NCBI GenBank assembly: GCA_029882995.1
Contig: JAOUJV010000004.1
Location: 1-63,715 of the forward strand
Direction: 5' to 3'
DNA: 63,715 nucleotides
From: Gammaproteobacteria bacterium
Lineage (GTDB): Bacteria > Pseudomonadota > Gammaproteobacteria > DAOVJZ01
The notes under the pieces: generated by a model
Told to the model about the DNA's origin: nothing
The model's database searches: none
Seen by the model: only the letters and a program-made list of their open reading frames with translations
Shown: in pieces, positions 1 to 9,808 of the stretch
How positions within the stretch are numbered: the stretch's first letter is position 1
Layout of the letters: the number at the start of each line of letters is the position of its first letter
Translations under genes and position numbers: made by a program

Positions 1-487
1 TGTGTTTTTCACGTATAAAACTGATAACCATATTCTGACGGGATTTAATATCCATCCATTCTGATTTTTCATAATCAAACCCCTGCTCTCTATGGCTATC
101 ACGCATACGTACAGACAAATGATGGCGCCCGGCAGAAACAATAAATTTTTCATTTACGACAGCCTCCCCATCTCCCGACAAGCCCGAAGGTTTAATCGAT
201 TTATTGTATACCTGCTTACCATCCAGCAGCATTTCGAGATAAACTGGTAACCTCTCACGCGGACAATCCATCGCCTGGCGCATGTTGGGTGGGGTATTGG
301 CAATTTCTTCAGCAGTAAACCTTCTGCATTTCTCTTTCAGATTGCCGACATGATTAAATGTCAGACGAATAACCGCCTGATCCGGAGTGGTATGAACATA
401 GACAGGTTCCGTTGAGAAATAACCCAATACTAATGCAAACAGCCCATAGAGTCCCAATTGACCTGTCAACTTAAATACCTTAATCAT
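1..487 (-). CDS. hypothetical membrane-anchored protein (C-terminus runs off the window)
   Basis: Minus-strand frame is open from ATG 487-485 to the window edge; it is not in the ORF track because it is truncated. My translation starts MIKVFKLTGQLGLYGLFALVLGYFSTEP..., giving one N-terminal hydrophobic helix. The ATG shares its A with the TGA stop of the upstream gene (TGATG), suggesting translational coupling. No family recognised. Confidence 0.5.
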   Translation of the reverse strand, partial: MIKVFKLTGQLGLYGLFALVLGYFSTEPVYVHTTPDQAVIRLTFNHVGNLKEKCRRFTAEEIANTPPNMRQAMDCPRERLPVYLEMLLDGKQVYNKSIKPSGLSGDGEAVVNEKFIVSAGRHHLSVRMRDSHREQGFDYEKSEWMDIKSRQNMVISFIREKH

Positions 488-2052
488 CACTCTTCACCTA
501 CTGAAGAAAGTGTTGTGCGCAAACCTGTTTTGATCGGTTCCATTGATTGCAGACGTTGGCGAAAATCCTTGATTGCCTTATCTAATTCCTTGTTGGGTGT
601 TTTTTCACCCCAGCTTTTTTCAATCCGCTCAACAGGGACACGTTTTCTAAGATAAGGATCTCTTTTCCCTGCCAGACGTTGATCCATCCAGGTCACGCCA
701 AATCGGTGAAAACAACTTTCTTCTGAGCAACCGGTTAAAAACACACCTTCAGCATGATGGCGACTGATGATGTAATCGATGAATGAAGGCGGTAGCATTG
801 AAATACAGGGCAGCTTGATAACGCCAACACCTTCTGACTTCAAACGATTCAAATCTGGACCATGTTCACATCCGAACACAACCACTCTATCCGAACCTTT
901 CAATGGCGCTGTTGCATTGAGCAAATCTTCACGTACTTTGCGTAAAGGAAGATCGGGCAAATCAATCCCGGGTATCAGCTCTGTTCTCTGACGGTAAGGT
1001 GTTGATGTCGGACAAGCCCCAACACAAATACCACAACCTGTACACAATGTGGGATCAACAATGGCCTCTTCCTTGTATTTCTGCCCATCGGTGCGTGGCT
1101 GCATCACTACAGCGGCATAGGGGCAATCATCAAAACACCGTGTACAGCCATTACAATTATCCAGACTGATTACGGCTGCTGATGGTTTCTTAACCGGCCA
1201 AATAAAGGGCAACAAACAGAAAAACACGGTTGGCACCAGCAATAATGACCAAACTGACCCCATAGACCAGTCACCAATGAGCGGATATACAAACAAATAA
1301 AACCAGTCCAACCCGACTTCACCGGTCACTGCTGAAAGATCGGTTCTGCCCTGACTGACCGCAGGCTTAACAAAAGAAAGTATCAGTAGCATTGCCATTG
1401 TCCCTATTGCCAATCCACGGGGTGGATTAACAATCGGGCGACTAATTCTCAATACATGAAACCAGATACCGAATATCAGAAAAATGGGCAGACCCAGCAC
1501 ATGAATGAAAGCCATCAATGTAAAGAATCTGTCGCTAATGCTTTCCTCTGAAATAAAATTACGTACCATCGGTTCGATAAAAATCGGTAGCCAGTCCATT
1601 AATTCAGAGCTGGCAACAGCGACATATTGCGCCAGTTGATCCCACACCAACCAGTAACCGGTAATACCTAACGGAAACACAAACCATATCAACAAAATAC
1701 CGGACAGCCAGGAATACCAGCGCACACCACTGAAGCGTCCTTTGAAAAACTCGCCTGCTAAATGAATTACCAGTGTGATGACTGCGCCATCAGATGCATA
1801 TCGATGCAGGCTACGCATCACACCGGCTATATACCATTGTTCATGGGTAATATATTCAACAGAATCATATGCGCCGAATATACTGGTTTCGAAAAAAATA
1901 AAGACATAAATACCGCTAACCAGCACAACCCAGAAAAAGAAAATGGTCAGTGCGCCAAGATAATGCAGTGGATTCAAAGCACTGCTAAAAACGCCATTAA
2001 ATCCTTTCTCAGCGTACTGGAACGCATCTTTGCCTAAAGATAATAATTTCAT
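487..2052 (-). CDS. fusion protein: di-haem cytochrome b domain + 2x[4Fe-4S] ferredoxin + MvhD/FlpD-like hydrogenase iron-sulfur domain
   Basis: 521-aa ORF. Two His pairs sit in hydrophobic helices (RSLHRYASDGAVITLVIH, 14 apart; FIHVLGLPIFLIFGIWFH, 15 apart). Two CxxCxxCxxxCP motifs (CNGCTRCFDDCP, CTGCGICVGACP). The C-terminus VVVFGCEHG...KLPCISMLPPSFIDYI...GVFLTGCSEESCFHRFG resembles the MvhD-type domain. Confidence 0.75.
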   Translation of the reverse strand: MKLLSLGKDAFQYAEKGFNGVFSSALNPLHYLGALTIFFFWVVLVSGIYVFIFFETSIFGAYDSVEYITHEQWYIAGVMRSLHRYASDGAVITLVIHLAGEFFKGRFSGVRWYSWLSGILLIWFVFPLGITGYWLVWDQLAQYVAVASSELMDWLPIFIEPMVRNFISEESISDRFFTLMAFIHVLGLPIFLIFGIWFHVLRISRPIVNPPRGLAIGTMAMLLILSFVKPAVSQGRTDLSAVTGEVGLDWFYLFVYPLIGDWSMGSVWSLLLVPTVFFCLLPFIWPVKKPSAAVISLDNCNGCTRCFDDCPYAAVVMQPRTDGQKYKEEAIVDPTLCTGCGICVGACPTSTPYRQRTELIPGIDLPDLPLRKVREDLLNATAPLKGSDRVVVFGCEHGPDLNRLKSEGVGVIKLPCISMLPPSFIDYIISRHHAEGVFLTGCSEESCFHRFGVTWMDQRLAGKRDPYLRKRVPVERIEKSWGEKTPNKELDKAIKDFRQRLQSMEPIKTGLRTTLSSVGEE

Positions 2053-2123: not shown

Positions 2124-3026
2124 TTATGTCAAGTCAGAACCCGCACGTTTGTTGCGGAAATACTCTCTAATCAAATACCAGAAGCCACCACCGATAATGG
2201 TAAACCCGATAAATATACCGATGAATAATGAATAATCAAAATGGTAGGAATCCGTCGCCGGATCGTATGTGGTACAAAACAATTTAACCTTGTTTGTCAG
2301 CACTGTCACTGTACTGTCTTCCGGCTTCTCGCCAAAGACCAATTGCTTGAGTGGTTCAACAAAGGCTTGTGTCTTTATCTGTTCACCGTAAACCTGCACA
2401 TAGACCTTGCCGCCTGTTTTGATAATGGTAGCCTGCGTCATATGATCATATCCTTTAGGTGAACGCTGATAACTGAACCCTAAATCACGTGTCAGCCTTT
2501 GCATGGTCTCAGCATCAGTACTCAGGAAATCCCATTTCAGAAGATCAATTTTCTGCTGATTGGCAAACGATGCCATCGCCTCTGGCGTATCAACAGGGGT
2601 ATCAAAACCTATCGTGAGCACATTGAAGCTCACCTCCCCCAGTGCATTACGCGCTTTTGTTACTGCATCAGCCAGATTACGCGTGATGGTAGGGCAAACA
2701 TGATAGCAGCTGGTGTAGATCAAACTGATAACCAGTGGCTTGTCGAAATAATCTGATAGCTTGACTCCACGACCGTCACTGGTGTTAAAGCTATAGTTAT
2801 TTAACTGACGTCCTATTGCGGCCTGACTTAGTTCCAGTGCCTTTTTTTCGTCAAGAACCGGGCTTGAAGATGGTTCATGCTCATGCATATCATGCTGCAT
2901 GGTCATCGGCTGATGCATTGCATCATGTCCGACCCCTGTTTCTGCAATGGAAACGAAAGGCATGGACAAAAGCATTAGCCAAAAAACTGTTTTAAATGAG
3001 AAATAACCAGCTACTTGAACAACCAC
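2124..3026 (-). CDS. SCO1/SenC-family copper chaperone (thioredoxin fold)
   Basis: 300-aa ORF with the CxxxCP motif LIYTSCYHVCP, an N-terminal hydrophobic signal/anchor and a C-terminal TM helix. GTG start at 3026; ATG at 2975 is an alternative. Confidence 0.75.
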   Translation of the reverse strand: MVVQVAGYFSFKTVFWLMLLSMPFVSIAETGVGHDAMHQPMTMQHDMHEHEPSSSPVLDEKKALELSQAAIGRQLNNYSFNTSDGRGVKLSDYFDKPLVISLIYTSCYHVCPTITRNLADAVTKARNALGEVSFNVLTIGFDTPVDTPEAMASFANQQKIDLLKWDFLSTDAETMQRLTRDLGFSYQRSPKGYDHMTQATIIKTGGKVYVQVYGEQIKTQAFVEPLKQLVFGEKPEDSTVTVLTNKVKLFCTTYDPATDSYHFDYSLFIGIFIGFTIIGGGFWYLIREYFRNKRAGSDLT

Positions 3027-3154: not shown

Positions 3155-4861
3155 TTAGCCCATGGGCCAGATAGAGGCGAGATATTTCCAGTTTACTGCG
3201 TAGTAAACAACGAACAGCAGCAGGAAGACCAGAGCGAATACGAAGGTACCTGGAGCAACAAAGCCGCCGATACCGATATTGCCATGACCTGCAGGTGCTG
3301 CTGCCATCTGCAATGGTGCATTTGGTCCTGTGCTGTATTCATCTGTACCAGCCACTTTCTTGCCAAACAGGATAGAAAGCACGGTAATCAGAATATAGGC
3401 AGCACCACCCACAATGGCCACAATACCGCTAATACCGGTAATTGCCATCAAGGTATAAGCCACCGCCGGGAAGTCATAGCCAAAGACAGCGCCACTGAAG
3501 GCCATATCCCAATGACGTCGAGCCACACCCATGGTGCCCGCACCCATCATGGCGATTGAGAACACGGACATCCCCAAACCAAACAGGTAAGGCTGCCATT
3601 TGGCCAATCCCTTCATCACCAGTTCACGCTTAAACAGAACAGGGATCAGGAAATAGGTCAGCGACATAAAGGCCAGCGTAGTACCCACTACCACCGTGGC
3701 ATGGAAATGGCCTGGTACGTAGATAGTGTTATGCATTGTGATGTTGATTTGCTCGGTACCCAGTACAACACCTGAGATACCACCAATGAAACCAAAACCA
3801 ATCAGCGAGATAAACATACCGGAGAAGACCGGGTTACCCCATGGTGCTTTACGAATCCACTCGAACAGCCCCTTGTCAAATCCTTTCTCACGCTGAGCAA
3901 CCTCAATACTGCCTGGAACAGTCAGACCATGAATCATACTGGCCAGTACAGCAAGGTACATAGCGTAACTGGTATTGAAGATTTTCCACTCTGAACTGAT
4001 ACCCGGATCAGACAACAGATGGTGTGCTGAAGCCAGTTGCAGGAACAGGATATACAGCAGGAAGGCGCCACGACTGACTCTTTCTGACATTGGTCTTGCG
4101 CCAAATACAATCGCTGCAATCGCGTACCAGACCGCCACATGGGCAGATACGTTAATCTGTTGTGATGAGTGCCCCATCGCCCACCAGATAACGCGATACA
4201 TCAATGCGTCAATGTGACCGATGTAACCAATTGACCACAGGAAGGTAGGAATCAAAATGATTGCGCCAGATGCAATGGTAAATATGGCGATAATGGCTGC
4301 TGTTAACGCACCAAAGGTGACGAGAGGAATGGACCCTTCGTATGTCCCTTCCGCCTTGGCGACGACCAGCGTACCAAGGAATACAAAACAACCCAGTAAT
4401 GCACCCACAGCAAACAGAATCAAACCCAGATAGAACTTCGGATTTGCCGGCATTGGCACATAGGATGTCATCATTACACTGGAATCACCACCCATAATGG
4501 CCACATTGGTCACAATGGCGCCAATAAACATGAGTATGAATCCGAGCCATGCAATCCTCGGGGTTGCCAGTCTGCACTTCAACAATGTCGATGAAGCAAA
4601 ATACAGAATGGCCATCTCAAAGAAGATGATCCAGAAAATAAGCATGTTGATGCCGTGTGCGGTTAATGCCTGATAAAACTTGTCAGCTGGAAGAAGATGG
4701 AACTCCTGCCAACGAGTCAGTGTTACAAGTAAGGAAAGGACACCCCCGATAAGCAGGATAACGACTGCTACCACCGCATTTAATTTCATCAGCGTTTCTG
4801 CTGGTTTGTGAAATAAAAGACCAGTGTTAGGGCATGTTCTGAATAATTGATTATTTGCCAT
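3155..4861 (-). CDS. haem-copper oxidase superfamily subunit I, B-type (ba3-like) scaffold with atypical CuB-site motif
   Basis: 568 aa, many TM helices. All six canonical His ligands are in ba3-like contexts: ALTAHGINM, WWAMGH, ASAHH, VPGHFHATV. SD AAGGAG lies 8 nt upstream of the ATG. The residue at His+4 is Gln (GHSSQQ, nt 4157-4171) instead of the cross-link Tyr. Confidence 0.85.
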   Translation of the reverse strand: MANNQLFRTCPNTGLLFHKPAETLMKLNAVVAVVILLIGGVLSLLVTLTRWQEFHLLPADKFYQALTAHGINMLIFWIIFFEMAILYFASSTLLKCRLATPRIAWLGFILMFIGAIVTNVAIMGGDSSVMMTSYVPMPANPKFYLGLILFAVGALLGCFVFLGTLVVAKAEGTYEGSIPLVTFGALTAAIIAIFTIASGAIILIPTFLWSIGYIGHIDALMYRVIWWAMGHSSQQINVSAHVAVWYAIAAIVFGARPMSERVSRGAFLLYILFLQLASAHHLLSDPGISSEWKIFNTSYAMYLAVLASMIHGLTVPGSIEVAQREKGFDKGLFEWIRKAPWGNPVFSGMFISLIGFGFIGGISGVVLGTEQINITMHNTIYVPGHFHATVVVGTTLAFMSLTYFLIPVLFKRELVMKGLAKWQPYLFGLGMSVFSIAMMGAGTMGVARRHWDMAFSGAVFGYDFPAVAYTLMAITGISGIVAIVGGAAYILITVLSILFGKKVAGTDEYSTGPNAPLQMAAAPAGHGNIGIGGFVAPGTFVFALVFLLLFVVYYAVNWKYLASIWPMG

Positions 4862-4872
4862 TGTTAAGCTCC

Positions 4873-5415
4873 TTAGTCTTTCACGTAGATTTTACCGAGC
4901 ATGTTGTGATGTCCAATGCCGCAGTATTCGTTACAAACGATGGTAAATTCACCTGAAGAATCCGGTGTGATGCTGATTACCATGTCATAGCCTGGTACAA
5001 CCTGCAGATTAATATTCAGCGGTTGTAGTGAAAAACCATGGTTCCAATCCATTGAGGAAAGATGCAACCGATAGGTCTGATTCTTTTCAAGCTCATAAAT
5101 TGGCCACCATTCCCAAAGACGACCTATTAAATAAATATCACTGCCTGCCGGAGGAGCAACAACAGGATAATTACGATCCGTTTCATTTCTGACAGTGTAT
5201 TTATCTATTACTGCTTGTGCCTTGGCTGCATAATCAGCTGAGGAGATACGATAAGCCTCATTAGATAAATTTTGTTTTCCGGCCACATGCCAATACGGCA
5301 TCATGGCAAACATGATTAAACACCAGACTAATGCCAACACTATCCAGGTACCTTCGACTCGATCTATTGGCTGATTCCACCAGATACGCCGTGAGGGGGG
5401 CTGAATTGCACTCAT
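4873..5415 (-). CDS. haem-copper oxidase subunit II with CuA centre
   Basis: 180 aa; one N-terminal TM helix plus a cupredoxin part. CuA ligand pattern WNHGF ... CNEYCGIGHHNM (H, CxxxCxxxHxxM). Confidence 0.85.
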   Translation of the reverse strand: MSAIQPPSRRIWWNQPIDRVEGTWIVLALVWCLIMFAMMPYWHVAGKQNLSNEAYRISSADYAAKAQAVIDKYTVRNETDRNYPVVAPPAGSDIYLIGRLWEWWPIYELEKNQTYRLHLSSMDWNHGFSLQPLNINLQVVPGYDMVISITPDSSGEFTIVCNEYCGIGHHNMLGKIYVKD

Positions 5416-5677: not shown

Positions 5678-5691
5678 TTGATCTAGGTCAA
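5678..5691 (-). promoter_or_regulatory. FNR/Dnr/NnrR-type (CRP-family) box upstream of the oxidase operon
   Basis: TTGATCTAGGTCAA matches TTGAT-N4-ATCAA at 9 of 10 specified positions. Its centre is 33 nt from the centre of a minus-strand -10-like hexamer TAATAT (5654-5649), a class II-like geometry. Confidence 0.55.
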
Positions 5692-5917
5692 GCTGAAAAA
5701 CATTATAACTAACAAAAAGATAGAAAAACGAGTTTTTTGTTTTTGCAATTATATATTAGATTTGGCTAATATGAATCCTCTGCTTTTTTATAATTCTGTT
5801 TTTGTGAGCCCGGCACTGCTCACAAGCAATAAACTAGTCTATTTTTGTGCATTATTACAGTATAGAATGTGCAAAATCCGATATTTAACCTTGAATTCTA
5901 TATAAAAGAACAAAATC

Positions 5918-6568
5918 ATGCTAAAAAAAACCTGCTTTGCCTCTTTTTTACTTCTATTTCTTTCTGCTTGCAACAATGAAACACCTCAAGACATAACACC
6001 AGAACCTTTAAATAATGAGTTCAACCGCATTAATGCTGATGGAACTCCGTATACAGGAAGCGGTAATTATTCCTCAGACCCATGGTATTGCGTTTATGAC
6101 AAACGCACCAAACTTATCTGGGAAGTAAAAACAGGCGCTGATGACATACATAATAAATACCATACCTACACCTGGTTTAATCAGGATCTGGCTAAAAATA
6201 ACAAGCAACCCGGTGTTGCAGATGGTGGCAAATGCACAGGCTCAAAGTGTGATACCTATTCCTATGTGGATGCTGTGAATGAGAAAGGACTATGTGGTTT
6301 CAAAGATTGGCGTCTACCGAAGCGTGTTGAATTGGGCACGATTGTTAATCGCGCTTTTTCCAAAACCGGTGCCACAATTAATCCCGAGTTTTTCCCTAAT
6401 ACACATCCCAAGGAATACTGGACTGATGAATCCTATACTTATCACTATGTGGGAGCATGGGCATGGGATTTTTCATTCGGCTATGATCGTGTTGACTGGA
6501 AAAAAGAACCCAAGTACATCAGGCTGGTGCGCAGTGATCCTGAGCCAGCAGAACCGGAAAAACCATAA
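5918..6568 (+). CDS. lipoprotein with DUF1566 (Lcl C-terminal-like) domain
   Basis: 216 aa; signal peptide with lipobox LFLSAC; motif FKDWRLPKRVEL typical of DUF1566. Confidence 0.6.
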   Translation: MLKKTCFASFLLLFLSACNNETPQDITPEPLNNEFNRINADGTPYTGSGNYSSDPWYCVYDKRTKLIWEVKTGADDIHNKYHTYTWFNQDLAKNNKQPGVADGGKCTGSKCDTYSYVDAVNEKGLCGFKDWRLPKRVELGTIVNRAFSKTGATINPEFFPNTHPKEYWTDESYTYHYVGAWAWDFSFGYDRVDWKKEPKYIRLVRSDPEPAEPEKP

Positions 6569-6573
6569 TTGGT

Positions 6574-8166
6574 TTATCGCTGGACTGTTTTTTGATAAGT
6601 CCAGACAGCTGTCATCATATTTGCCCAAAGCAGTAACATGGAGGCGGCAAACAGCGTGACAGCAGGATAAAACAATAGCTCAGGATAAAATACTGTTCCT
6701 GCCAATCCCGTAATAGAACCAAGATGCAGCCAGTATTGAATCCACATTCTTCTGCCTCTAATAATCTCTTTCATATTAGGCAGCACGCCAGGGGTGGTTT
6801 GTTTTGCCTGCAAATGGAACCAGACAAGGAAAGGCATAATTTTATATAACATGCCATTAATAACCGATTGCATAACACCTGAGATAACTACAATTCCGAT
6901 AACCAGTTCAAGTAAATAATACTCCCCCGTTTCAGGTGAAATAATATTTACTGCCGTCAATACAATACCCAGAATTGCTGACACCATGGCTAGTTGCCAA
7001 AAGCTGACAGTGACATCAGGTATTTTCCTCCTTCTCTGTTTTTGTAATATCAAGGTATTAATCGAATATAACCCGGTCAGTAATAAAATCAGTAACCCAG
7101 AGAGATAATAAATCATATTTTTCCCATCGAGATATTGATGAAAATAAGTGACCAGCGACCAAAGCACTAATAGATATACCAATGATATGGGCAACCATTG
7201 CCGTATCCAGATTGGGTATTGCGGGGTTATCTGGAACATTGGTACAACCTGAAAAGAAACCCCGATTATTAACAATCCGGTCCATCCAACCAACCCCCAG
7301 CCCAGATGAATCGTGGCAAACAGGTGTTTGGCGACTCCTCCATGCGCGCCAAAAATAGCTACCATCACAACACCCATTGCAACAGTGACAGCAAGTGAAA
7401 TAACGGCCAGCTTTATTGCTCTGGAAGCGCTTGTCCTGACACCGGATGTAAACATGGTGTGCAGGACCACGACAATAAAGACTGAAAATGCCAGCCCCAG
7501 AAACGTAGCTGCACTATTAAATAAAATATCTTTTCTGAACAGAAAAGCACTGCCTAGAAAAACAACGCCCGGTACATATAGACCAAATACAATATTACTT
7601 ACAAGGCGTGACTTCGGAATGATTGTGCCAATTACTACAGGCAGGATTTGCATCATGGCACCTATCATTGTCATGGTAGAAAATCCCAATACCATAAAAT
7701 GAACAGCGGAGACTGCTTCAGGTGTCCAGCGAGAATCCATCGATTCCGGGCCAGCAAACAACAACACCATCGCAGCAACAAAACCAAATACCGGTGCCAT
7801 CAGAAAAAAACGAAATGGAATACTGATGGGGGGGGCCTGTTCAAAAGATAACTTGGGGGTATCCTTCGCCTCTGCCTTTTTCTTTTTTATGTCCCACGCC
7901 TGTTTTATCAAGGCCTGACAACGAGTATCTGCTTCCTGATCTGTTTTTTTCCAGATCAGAACTTCAAAGGCAGGTTCTTTAGTTCTGAATGTATGAAATG
8001 CATAACCGCGCTTTTCCAGTAGCGGATACAGAAGCTCCGGGTTGCGGCGATGAAGAAGACGAATATATTGCCCTGCCTGTAACTCATCCAGTGCAGACAA
8101 TGCTTTTTGCAATGGCTCCGGCGGTTCTAACTGGCTTACATCAAGAAGATACTCGTGCTCAGCCAT
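6574..8166 (-). CDS. DUF2249 domain fused to an NnrS-like polytopic membrane protein
   Basis: 530 aa. The N-terminal ~75 aa (LDVSQLEPPEPLQKALSALDELQAGQYIRLLHRRNPELLYPLLEKRGYAFH) reads as DUF2249. After a charged linker comes a ~400-aa multi-TM domain that begins PFRFFLMAP, reminiscent of the NnrS N-terminal FRPFFL motif. Confidence 0.55.
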   Translation of the reverse strand: MAEHEYLLDVSQLEPPEPLQKALSALDELQAGQYIRLLHRRNPELLYPLLEKRGYAFHTFRTKEPAFEVLIWKKTDQEADTRCQALIKQAWDIKKKKAEAKDTPKLSFEQAPPISIPFRFFLMAPVFGFVAAMVLLFAGPESMDSRWTPEAVSAVHFMVLGFSTMTMIGAMMQILPVVIGTIIPKSRLVSNIVFGLYVPGVVFLGSAFLFRKDILFNSAATFLGLAFSVFIVVVLHTMFTSGVRTSASRAIKLAVISLAVTVAMGVVMVAIFGAHGGVAKHLFATIHLGWGLVGWTGLLIIGVSFQVVPMFQITPQYPIWIRQWLPISLVYLLVLWSLVTYFHQYLDGKNMIYYLSGLLILLLTGLYSINTLILQKQRRRKIPDVTVSFWQLAMVSAILGIVLTAVNIISPETGEYYLLELVIGIVVISGVMQSVINGMLYKIMPFLVWFHLQAKQTTPGVLPNMKEIIRGRRMWIQYWLHLGSITGLAGTVFYPELLFYPAVTLFAASMLLLWANMMTAVWTYQKTVQR

Positions 8167-8181: not shown

Positions 8182-8628
8182 TTAATCCAGACTGGTTACT
8201 TCGGAAACTAATGTGTCAGCGTTTGCATCAAGTGCCCTATCCATCATTGGATAAAGTATCTGTTCTTCTTTCATATTATGCTGCTGCATTAAAACCAGCA
8301 GTGTTTCGGAGTTTCCCAGATAGCCGTCCTTATCCCTTGCTGCACATGCTGATTTCAGGTTTTGGGTAAGGGCTTTCATTTGCTCATGTTCCATGCGCAT
8401 CATTTGTGTAGGACCACCTGTTTGACCTGTTTCAGTTTCAAATGCGGGGAAAAGGATGTCTTCTTCTCTGCGCAGATGCAGTATCAAGGCATTCTCAAAT
8501 TGATCAAACAACGCTGCTGCTTCGTCCCATTTTCCTTGTGCTACTGCATTTTCAGCAGAAGCAAAATAGCCGTCACATTCCTGATGATGTTGTGTCATTA
8601 ATTCACTGATTGCCACGGCCATATCCAT
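8182..8628 (-). CDS. hemerythrin HHE cation-binding domain protein
   Basis: Repeated H/E motifs (HHQECD, ILHLRREEDILFP, MRMEHEQM, MQQHNMKEEQILYP). Start chosen at ATG 8628 (MDMAVAISEL...) because of the SD GGAGAGG just upstream; the ORF track begins earlier, at 8700. Confidence 0.75.
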   Translation of the reverse strand: MDMAVAISELMTQHHQECDGYFASAENAVAQGKWDEAAALFDQFENALILHLRREEDILFPAFETETGQTGGPTQMMRMEHEQMKALTQNLKSACAARDKDGYLGNSETLLVLMQQHNMKEEQILYPMMDRALDANADTLVSEVTSLD

Positions 8629-8729
8629 ACCCTCTCCTTTAATATTTTTACCTGAATAAAGAAAATCCGCCCAGCTGATTACGAGCGGATAAAGAGACAC
8701 TATTTAGCAATACCTGACCTTGACAATCA

Positions 8730-8743
8730 TTGATCAATATCAA
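8730..8743 (-). promoter_or_regulatory. perfect FNR/Dnr/NnrR-type box upstream of the hemerythrin / DUF2249-NnrS genes
   Basis: TTGATCAATATCAA is an exact TTGAT-N4-ATCAA. Its centre is 33 nt from the centre of the -10-like TAAATA (8706-8701), the same geometry as the box at 5678. Confidence 0.65.
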
Positions 8744-8773: not shown

Positions 8774-9808
8774 TTATTTTCTTAGCTTATGGGTCAATAC
8801 CAGCGAAATTGTGAGCAAGAGAATCGCTCCCCCCTGATGTGCCACACCTAATGCAACAGGCACAACCAGCACAAGGGTGCTGATGCCGAGCGTTATCTGA
8901 ATCATCATCATCAAAAGCAATAAATGCGATGCAAGACGCAATCCCGGTGTCACTGCCTTGTTAAAAATGCGGAACCATAAAATCAGGATCAGCACAATCA
9001 CGGCATAGGCAATCATCCGGTGATTAAACTGAATAGTGGCCAGATTTTCAAACAAGTTCATATACCATGGCTCCATTGCAAACATACCCGGCGGTATGAA
9101 ATATTCATACATTAACGGGAACGTATTAAAGACGTAGCCTGCCCTTGTCCCTGCAACAAAACCACCACTTAATATCATGATGATAATAACAGTGGTAACA
9201 ACCAGTGCCAGTTTCCGGAAATGATCAACTTCATGTAGAGTCACTCGTCTGGCACTGTTTTCCAATAAGCCAAGTGCAACCCACAAAATATATCCATAGA
9301 TAAGAACTGCGGCACCAAGATGTGCAGTTAATCTGTATTGACTGACGCGCGGATTATCAACAAGGCCGCTCTTGACCATATACCAACCTAACAATCCTTG
9401 CAGACCACCGAGCAAAAACATGGTGATTAGTTTTGGTATGAGTTCACGTTTTATTTTTTTCAGTGCAAGAAAGATCAAAAACGGTATCAAAAAAACTATA
9501 CCAATGGTTCTACCCAATAGACGGTGACCATATTCATACCAGAAAATAGATTTGAATTCATCCAGACTCATTCCCTTGTTAACTTTCTTGTATTCCGGGA
9601 AATTTTTGTATTTTGAAAATGTCTCCTGCCAGCTTTCCTCTGTCAATGGAGGGATCGCACCCATGATCGGCTTCCAGTCAACCATAGAAAGTCCTGAACC
9701 GGTTAAGCGGGTAGCACCACCAAGAATCACCATGGAAAAAATCAGTCCACAGCAAACCAGCAGCCAGATGGCGAGTTGACGATTGTTTTTTTGTTCTTGT
9801 GTAATCAA
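8774..9808 (-). CDS. ctaA: haem A synthase (COX15/CtaA family)
   Basis: 344 aa, ~8 TM helices. N-terminal motif GGATRLTGSGLSMVDWKPIMG and conserved His residues in helices (YGHRLLG, LTAHLG, QFNHRM, VAHQGG). Confidence 0.85.
   Translation of the reverse strand: MITQEQKNNRQLAIWLLVCCGLIFSMVILGGATRLTGSGLSMVDWKPIMGAIPPLTEESWQETFSKYKNFPEYKKVNKGMSLDEFKSIFWYEYGHRLLGRTIGIVFLIPFLIFLALKKIKRELIPKLITMFLLGGLQGLLGWYMVKSGLVDNPRVSQYRLTAHLGAAVLIYGYILWVALGLLENSARRVTLHEVDHFRKLALVVTTVIIIMILSGGFVAGTRAGYVFNTFPLMYEYFIPPGMFAMEPWYMNLFENLATIQFNHRMIAYAVIVLILILWFRIFNKAVTPGLRLASHLLLLMMMIQITLGISTLVLVVPVALGVAHQGGAILLLTISLVLTHKLRK

Follow-up and report, generated by a model that had tools for sequence, protein, structure and literature searches.

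What does a membrane cytochrome b with iron-sulfur (Fe-S) domains at its C-terminus do beside a nitric oxide (NO) reductase? The question was raised by a gene at 487–2052 on the minus strand of contig JAOUJV010000004.1 (Gammaproteobacteria bacterium, assembly GCA_029882995.1), of which positions 1 to 63,715 were analysed; this whole stretch of 63,715 nucleotides is called the window below. The gene encodes a fusion of a cytochrome b, a ferredoxin module with two [4Fe-4S] sites and a domain resembling MvhD/FlpD. An earlier note on the same DNA had proposed it as a dedicated electron conduit for the neighbouring oxidase. Here, the gene was identified, with little room for doubt, as an eNOR-linked protein of the PDWF-FeS clade of cytochrome b, and its product is read as an electron relay serving eNOR rather than as a pure assembly factor (probability roughly 0.7). 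A dedicated conduit is the most economical reading because of the MvhD-like domain, the link to the oxidase and the membership of a membrane-anchored open reading frame (ORF) in the same unit. That part of the proposal was retained; the contact with eNOR, the direction of electron flow and supply in place of maturation are inferred.

The reading frame was uninterrupted and gave a product of 521 residues. The three parts claimed for it were recovered by Pfam models, all above gathering score: Cytochrome_B (PF00033) at residues 23–203 (60 bits, cut-off 27), several Fer4 dicluster models at residues 293–350, and FlpD (PF02662) at residues 407–504 (37.8 bits, cut-off 22.3). The gene was divided as follows.

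487–2052, minus strand: whole fusion gene, cytochrome b / 2x[4Fe-4S] / MvhD-like, PDWF-FeS clade (521 residues).
1438–1986, minus strand: cytochrome b6-like four-helix core, residues 23–205 (PF00033 and profile match to cytochrome b6 of PDB 6rqf).
1183–1437, minus strand: helices E and F with the ef loop, a subunit-IV-like part, residues 206–290 (Foldseek, hidden Markov model (HMM) alignment, invariance).
1003–1176, minus strand: 2x[4Fe-4S] ferredoxin domain, residues 293–350, probably cytoplasmic (Fer4 Pfam models).
541–885, minus strand: MvhD/FlpD-like domain, residues 390–504 (PF02662 and profile match to MvhD chains).

All 16 ligands (4 His, 12 Cys) were invariant in an alignment of 24 homologues of 51–86% identity. 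Eight of the Cys (300, 303, 306, 310 and 337, 340, 343, 347) make up two CxxCxxCxxxCP motifs (300–310, 337–347) of the ferredoxin domain. The other four (395, 416, 442, 447) lie in the FlpD part and, by analogy with solved MvhD, presumably form a [2Fe-2S] site. The MvhD-like nature of this domain was borne out by profile comparison: the family profile aligned with residues 18–137 of the 140 residues of MvhD chain 5odc_D (E 8.5e-11), with three cluster Cys directly on Cys of that chain, and MvhD chain 9sw2_D was a second match. On these ligands, the protein is predicted to hold two haems b and the corresponding Fe-S clusters.

The C-terminal 230 residues also aligned with the ferredoxin and MvhD tail of HdrA2 (NF040770 model positions 569–775) with the Cys ligands kept, although the score lies far below that model's cut-off (54 vs 1100 bits). 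Unlike MvhD of the Mvh-Hdr complex, the domain is tethered to a membrane cytochrome, and its cluster is without genes for hydrogenase, HdrA, HdrB or HdrC; as far as the window cluster and the syntenic loci were annotated, they contained neither Hdr nor Mvh genes.

The fusion gene lies in a run of five tightly packed genes on the minus strand, in the order subunit II, subunit I, SCO1, fusion, anchored ORF. SCO1 adjoins it 71 nt upstream, and the next ORF overlaps its stop codon, both as described earlier: minus strand 490..485 reads GTGATG, in which the TGA of the fusion gene (489–487) and the following ATG (487–485) share one A.

4873–5415, minus strand: eNOR subunit II with complete CuA motif (H126, C161, C165, H169, M172 invariant).
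3155–4861, minus strand: eNOR subunit I, GHSSQQ with Gln at the Tyr position (motif and Pfam).
2124–3026, minus strand: SCO1/SenC copper chaperone with an extra C-terminal transmembrane helix (Pfam SCO1-SenC; syntenic in 78/80 loci).
2–487, minus strand: anchored ORF, a split-off fifth module with an N-terminal transmembrane helix and a putatively periplasmic beta-sandwich (AlphaFold2 model, family fusions).

Gln in place of the cross-link Tyr is diagnostic of eNOR (PMC8756737), and by this motif the neighbouring oxidase is assigned to eNOR. Asn is carried at this position by sNOR and bNOR. The sNOR cluster of ammonia oxidisers (norSY-senC-orf1) was considered and ruled out, the oxidase having Gln, not Asn.

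Linkage of fusion and oxidase was analysed in four samples. The first took the fusion as its starting point and comprised loci of 80 species genomes, in which the order subunit II, subunit I, (UbiA-type haem O synthase), SCO1, fusion, anchored ORF was kept wherever the contig allowed. Subunit I of a haem-copper oxidase was present in 73 loci, SCO1 and the anchored ORF in 78 each, and most loci without subunit I ended at a contig boundary. The only unlinked locus was that of Magnetococcus, whose eNOR sits on another contig. For the second sample, 80 metagenome loci were collected with a distant clade as query, many of their fusions being 28–35% identical to the window protein; a FastTree tree served solely for choosing clades. 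An eNOR-like subunit I (~50–56% identical) again lay upstream in the same order, and linkage to eNOR held down to 27–35% identity of the fusion. In a distant representative on a short contig, eNOR subunit I was directly upstream. The adjacent subunit I sequences carried GHxxQQ, with Gln at the place of Tyr, in 120 of 120 cases, in line with the suggested co-occurrence with Tyr-less oxidases.

For the third sample, the starting point was eNOR. Subunit I was searched for (E <= 1e-80) in 400 genomes sampled evenly from the window's class and found in 21, all of which carried the fusion (21/21); in about 19 of them it lay 1–3.5 kb downstream, sharing contig and strand with subunit I. A fusion without an eNOR match was present in 4 of 378 genomes scored as eNOR-negative; all four were fragmented, with the gene at most ~1.1 kb from a contig end. 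For the fourth sample, a second class was sampled evenly around a Rhodospirillaceae-labelled genome. Here, the fusion was present in 25/25 eNOR genomes and lay on the same contig, 1–3.6 kb downstream, in 24. The two classes combined gave 46/46 eNOR genomes with the fusion, about 43 of them with a spacing of 1–3.6 kb downstream of subunit I.

The full eNOR cluster was also found in a member of the Methylomirabilota, and Bradyrhizobium strains carry it as well. The sister genome G133 had the same order through hemerythrin and nirS, followed by genes for a NirT/NapC-type cytochrome, a cupredoxin and a tetrapyrrole methylase. Locus L012 (CAWKAE010000009.1), whose record title reads 'uncultured Halobacteria archaeon', holds an eNOR cluster of the kind typical of proteobacteria; the class sample around its genome returned the same genomes and contig coordinates as the window's class, and the archaeal label looks wrong.

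Such linkage could in principle arise if a mobile denitrification island carried eNOR together with a general respiratory cytochrome b that is functionally unconnected to it. Two family members fit this idea: one from the Chloroflexota, whose neighbours are a Tyr-containing oxidase, a Rieske/cytochrome b complex and a GltD-like Fe-S flavoprotein, and one from the Nitrospinota, with no oxidase on its 8.4-kb contig. The idea is hardly credible in view of the co-occurrence in both classes, the conserved order, strand and spacing, and the persistence of linkage at 27–35% identity of the fusion. The genes of the Chloroflexota locus (L171:1-11139) run COX2, UbiA, a Tyr-containing COX1 (GHPLVY), cytochrome c, a 665-residue GltD-like Fe-S/NAD(P)H flavoprotein, a split cytochrome b, a Rieske protein, a multihaem cytochrome c and the fusion, a setting unlike that of eNOR and reminiscent of the NAD(P)-linked bc complexes that have been suggested in anammox bacteria.

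The cytochrome b part had been described as b6-like from its His spacing. The spacing was recovered (H83/H97, H-x13-H; H184/H199, H-x14-H) and is b6-like, although many relatives have x13 in place of x14 in helix D. The b6-like core stood, and the extent had to be enlarged: the part comprises six helices (A–F) of bc type, including an ef loop with a quinol-oxidation (Qo) motif that reads LDWF at residues 248–251. In an AlphaFold2 model of the 521-residue protein (predicted local distance difference test, pLDDT, 78.9; predicted TM-score, pTM, 0.72), ~290 columns were aligned by Foldseek with bc1 cytochrome b, covering helices A–F and the ef loop. The family profile aligned with bovine cytochrome b over residues 12–302 and matched cytochrome b6 of PDB 6rqf with an E of 8.8e-26. 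D249, W250 and Y252 were invariant, and the first position of the Qo motif varied among L, F and P in relatives; the Asp and Trp of the motif and the WD of the cd loop were invariant even in clades of ~30% identity. For a paralogue from Polaromonas, the NCBIfam model memb_ExtQ matched the region of helices E and F.

Four His, the WDQ of the cd loop, the Qo motif of the ef loop and the A–F fold are shared with b6 plus subunit IV of b6f and with bc1 cytochrome b. Unlike those complexes, the protein has six helices only, an Fe-S chain fused on the negative (n) side, and an operon without a gene for Rieske protein or cytochrome c1/f; a scan of the five operon proteins for the Rieske domain (PF00355), limited to those five, gave no match. 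Unlike b6, it has Tyr at the place of the Cys that binds haem ci: in the profile alignment, H30-Y31 lies over Y-C of b6, and Tyr31 replaces the haem-ci/cn Cys (Cys35 of b6). NCBIfam scores were far under cut-off for cytochrome b6 (83 vs 325 bits) and ExtP (95 vs 290 bits). A separate, canonical bc1 cytochrome b is encoded on contig C114 of the same genome, and in an HMM alignment of the two LDWF stood over PVWY. That canonical protein (L002, G000:C114:30405-33974) itself has PVWY, not PEWY, as its Qo motif.

By analogy with b6f and bc1 structures, H83/H184 would bind the haem on the positive (p) side and H97/H199 that on the n side. The Fe-S domains are placed in the cytoplasm, because the model has six helices and an N-terminus that is taken to lie inside, as in cytochrome b.

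The earlier note had regarded the architecture as unusual and knew of no characterised enzyme of this kind. Comparison with the literature showed the architecture to be already described and not rare. [quoted passage not shown] A sister form from Alicycliphilus, fused to ferredoxin and flavin oxidoreductase, is described in the same paper. The window protein shares with this clade a bc-type cytochrome b with four His, the xDWF Qo motif, the 4Fe-4S and MvhD tail and an operon without Rieske; it differs from the name-giving motif by Leu for the Pro of the first position. The eNOR link, the periplasmic fifth module and the diflavin variant (see below) are absent from the description in the accessible part of that paper (PMC4122944). 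In PMC8756737, an appendix table lists, without comment, a protein with hits to cytochrome b6, a dimethyl sulfoxide reductase (DMSOR)-beta-like family and FlpD. The main text of the principal eNOR paper, in its available portion, does not discuss the fusion gene. At E <= 1e-30 the family comprised 510 clusters at 50% identity. The family is thus already described, widespread and uncharacterised. New here are the test starting from eNOR in two classes, the prevalence of the five-module chain, the diflavin paralogue, the Chloroflexota exception and the context of hemerythrin and nirS.

Paralogues in eNOR clusters bear on the route of electrons. In Polaromonas (L066, 3720-5657, plus strand) and at metagenome locus L165, the same cytochrome b carries a BenC-like tail, Fer2 ([2Fe-2S])-FAD-NAD reductase. 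In L170 (1672-4212, minus strand) and P0157, the tail is a diflavin module, flavodoxin-FAD-NAD(P)H, of the cytochrome P450 reductase/CysJ type. These flavin-module paralogues retain the four His and the DWFY motif and sit in eNOR clusters alongside the Fer4-MvhD form, which is the only form in the window. To our knowledge, BenC-like and diflavin modules are NAD(P)H oxidisers in every characterised system, which suggests that this cytochrome b was built for reduction from the cytoplasmic side. Given a quinone-type pocket facing the p side and low-potential centres facing the n side, electrons moving from quinol to NAD+ would have to climb both the redox and the membrane potential, and those moving from quinol into the Fe-S chain would have to do so too unless bifurcation met the cost. 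A path from a cytoplasmic donor to the p side is preferred on account of the flavin modules of the paralogues and this geometry.

In the proposed relay, a cytoplasmic donor would feed electrons in at the MvhD-type cluster. A wire of cofactors would then cross the membrane by way of the 2x[4Fe-4S] module, haem bH on the n side and haem bL on the p side to the p-side pocket. On the periplasmic side, the electrons would leave either by reducing a quinone at the Qo-like pocket or straight into the CuA domain of eNOR, with which the fusion protein would be in contact. The supply of eNOR would be independent of bc1 and cytochrome c and linked to NAD(P)H or ferredoxin, in a logic comparable to NorVW, Hmp or P450nor, but around a membrane enzyme. 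Flow from cytoplasm to periplasm in exactly this form is given a little less than an even chance, its direction being read from paralogues and geometry.

The anchored ORF contributes a seventh helix and a periplasmic beta-sandwich to the unit. Its last 5 codons lie beyond the window, on contig C95 (2632 bp; L175:2506-2632), which overlaps window positions 1–127 by 127 identical bases and completes the ORF (…REKHSFVFK). Past this join come a hemerythrin gene and nirS; contig C13 supplies the remainder of nirS together with a NirT-type cytochrome. Among the best 150 of the cluster representatives, 113 combined cytochrome b, Fer4 and FlpD. A homologue of the anchored ORF was fused to the same chain in 67 of these 113, and 10 more carried an unassigned C-terminal extension. 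A single chain that joins all five modules is the most frequent arrangement of the family among these best 150 representatives. Because 67 of the 150 carry the module on the cytochrome b chain itself, the anchored ORF and the fusion protein are one unit; the earlier note had described the ORF as translationally coupled. The AlphaFold2 model of the module (pLDDT 95.6) consists of a transmembrane helix followed by a beta-sandwich, which by topology would be periplasmic. A fold search of the module against the PDB gave no match at E <= 0.001, only generic beta-sandwiches. For complex prediction, eNOR subunits I and II were combined with the anchored downstream protein; the score was 0.58, and that of an unrelated control 0.60.

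Several points weigh against a relay for eNOR. Besides the Chloroflexota member and that of the Nitrospinota, which show that the link is not absolute across the family, the conserved cluster core encodes no cytoplasmic donor for the MvhD-type cluster, and the conserved Qo-like pocket is superfluous for a plain NOX-like conduit. In the periplasmic module no conserved metal motif was found, only three Arg and a single His being conserved generally; its Cys pair does not vary within the window's clade and is missing from distant clades. An assembly role would account equally well for the constant place of the fusion next to SCO1 and haem O synthase. No experimental characterisation of any family member was found in the literature. 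Finally, the purified, active eNOR of Rhodothermus marinus showed two bands only, subunits I and II, and was active with N,N,N',N'-tetramethyl-p-phenylenediamine (TMPD)/ascorbate. Because this enzyme is active as two subunits, the relay is dispensable for catalysis with artificial donors and may bind loosely.

The last points are those on which a role in maturation would draw. Here, the wire would bring reducing power, across to the periplasm or to enzymes of the membrane, for the assembly of eNOR, not for catalysis. It could keep SCO1/CuA cysteines or copper reduced and could also feed haem O/A(s) synthesis, CtaA needing electrons and O2. Mitochondrial Cox15 operates with ferredoxin and its reductase. 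The fusion directly follows SCO1 in 78 of the 80 species loci, UbiA-type haem O synthase occurs in 45/80 and CtaA in 15/80 of the clusters, and in the window CtaA lies 3.3 kb upstream; the Cys pair of the periplasmic module in the window's clade would also suit such a role. Organisms with aa3 oxidases need SCO1, CtaA and CtaB as well, yet the fusion tracks eNOR only (46/46, against 4/378 eNOR-negative genomes). With no known copper or thiol relay that employs haems and three Fe-S clusters, and the Cys pair lost in distant clades, maturation is considered unlikely.

The conserved pocket, in turn, raises the possibility of bifurcation at a Qo-type site. In the eNOR operon of Ferrigenium straubiae, two cytochrome b genes (2878407319, 2878407323) are called 'rather unusual'; one product is a cytochrome b-FeS-FAD-NADH and the other a cytochrome b-FeS protein, both are in the proteome, and an eNOR supercomplex coupling NO reduction to NAD+ reduction is proposed (bioRxiv 10.64898/2026.01.22.701106). 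The layout matches that of Polaromonas L066 and metagenome locus L165. The preprint leaves the MvhD domain unnamed; the Fer4-MvhD form was present here in every eNOR genome sampled. Applied to the window protein, quinol would be oxidised on the p side, with one electron passing to the eNOR branch and the other through bL, bH and the Fe-S centres to reduce a low-potential cytoplasmic carrier (NAD+ in the flavin paralogues), so that the cost of reverse electron flow would be borne by NO reduction. All clades and paralogues have kept the Qo motif and the cd-loop WD, the operon has no Rieske gene among the five proteins scanned, and coupling is strict to an acceptor system of very high potential. 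Reverse electron flow is a necessity for many of the hosts, lithoautotrophs such as Sulfuricaulis, Acidiferrobacterales and Gallionellaceae. No encoded redox cofactor could replace the Rieske cluster at the pocket, however, and BenC-like and diflavin modules are known solely as NAD(P)H oxidisers. As estimated from standard potentials, a semiquinone of ubiquinone could reach ~-320 mV on the n side, against the membrane potential, only if its first acceptor lay well above the usual potentials of CuA. Bifurcation is held to be quite unlikely on balance. Less probable again, and very doubtful, is a supercomplex of the fusion protein, its periplasmic module and eNOR, in which the CuA domain of eNOR subunit II replaces the Rieske head at the Rieske-less Qo site and quinol is bifurcated between NO reduction and the n-side Fe-S centres. 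If true, it would be a Q-cycle-like machine in which the very high NO/N2O potential pushes electrons to cytoplasmic low-potential carriers.

The p-side pocket is also compatible with a redox loop of the NarI/HdrE kind, with quinol oxidised on the p side and both electrons carried inward to a cytoplasmic acceptor of high potential. In NarI-NarH, HdrE-HdrD and DsrM-DsrK, a stacked di-haem cytochrome b links a quinone site to cytoplasmic Fe-S clusters, and the layout of cytochrome b, Fe-S and cytoplasmic acceptor is textbook knowledge for NarGHI, HdrED and DsrMK. The window protein resembles these systems in its two stacked b haems between quinone site and cytoplasmic Fe-S. It differs in its bc-type fold, unrelated to the NarI type, and in joining on one chain what they keep on separate polypeptides; each of them has a known catalytic cytoplasmic subunit, whereas the window family has none known. 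A candidate acceptor would be the hemerythrin-like di-iron protein, scavenging NO/O2 or repairing nitrosylated Fe-S clusters. Its gene follows the anchored ORF in 65/80 species loci, and also in the window genome and its sister; it was detected in only 16/80 metagenome loci, none of the 16 in the distant clade (28–35% identical). A loop of this kind would leave unexplained the NAD(P)H-module paralogues, the fusion of the periplasmic module and the tracking of eNOR rather than of general NO stress genes, and it is judged as improbable as bifurcation at the Qo-type site.

The gene matters for a large enzyme family: in IMG metagenomes, 2,709 eNOR sequences were counted, against 4,824 of cNOR and 7,680 of qNOR (Murali et al. 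2024, Table 1). A five-cofactor membrane protein inherited with eNOR in every sampled eNOR genome is the obvious candidate for the metabolic wiring of eNOR. It may determine any of three things: if eNOR is supplied by respiratory quinol or by cytoplasmic reductant, if NO reduction conserves energy, and if assembly of eNOR is possible in the first place. A complete bc-type cytochrome b with Qo motif and without Rieske protein also bears on the evolution of the Q-cycle machinery. Tractable hosts of the eNOR cluster are Magnetospirillum magneticum AMB-1 and Bradyrhizobium strains.

For the control region of the operon, one site was listed.

5678–5691, plus strand: FNR/Dnr-like box TTGATCTAGGTCAA upstream of the operon (pattern search; count not above chance).

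Three FNR-type boxes were found in the window against 1.1 expected, and 10 of 100 shuffles reached 3, which is not above chance. A promoter-like site was located at 5775–5748 on the minus strand, and no terminator-like sites were found in the intergenic gaps of the operon.

Further upstream, between the eNOR operon and the next gene of the minus strand, a protein with an Lcl C-terminal domain (PF07603, 91 bits) is encoded at 5918–6568 on the plus strand. It is followed on the minus strand by a gene for DUF2249 fused to a polytopic membrane protein without family match (6574–8166), a hemerythrin gene (8182–8700) and the CtaA gene (8774–9808). An exact palindrome, TTGAT-N4-ATCAA, lies at 8730–8743 between ctaA and the hemerythrin gene.

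Many eNOR clusters also encode a divergent COX1-like protein of ~455 residues (L014:10670-12037, plus strand; L066:6227-7594; L007:10679-12034; L172:5815-7242). It scored 35–51 bits with Pfam COX1, has the metal-site His motif GGGHVLQF or GGGHVLQY and comes without a subunit II of its own. The DUF2249 protein of the window (530 residues) is unrelated to this family (BLASTP E 0.3). The Ferrigenium preprint speaks of an 'eNOR scaffold protein of unknown function' (bioRxiv 10.64898/2026.01.22.701106), to which the COX1-like protein may correspond. Its gene stands after the anchored ORF and hemerythrin, and directly after subunit I in the Methylomirabilota.

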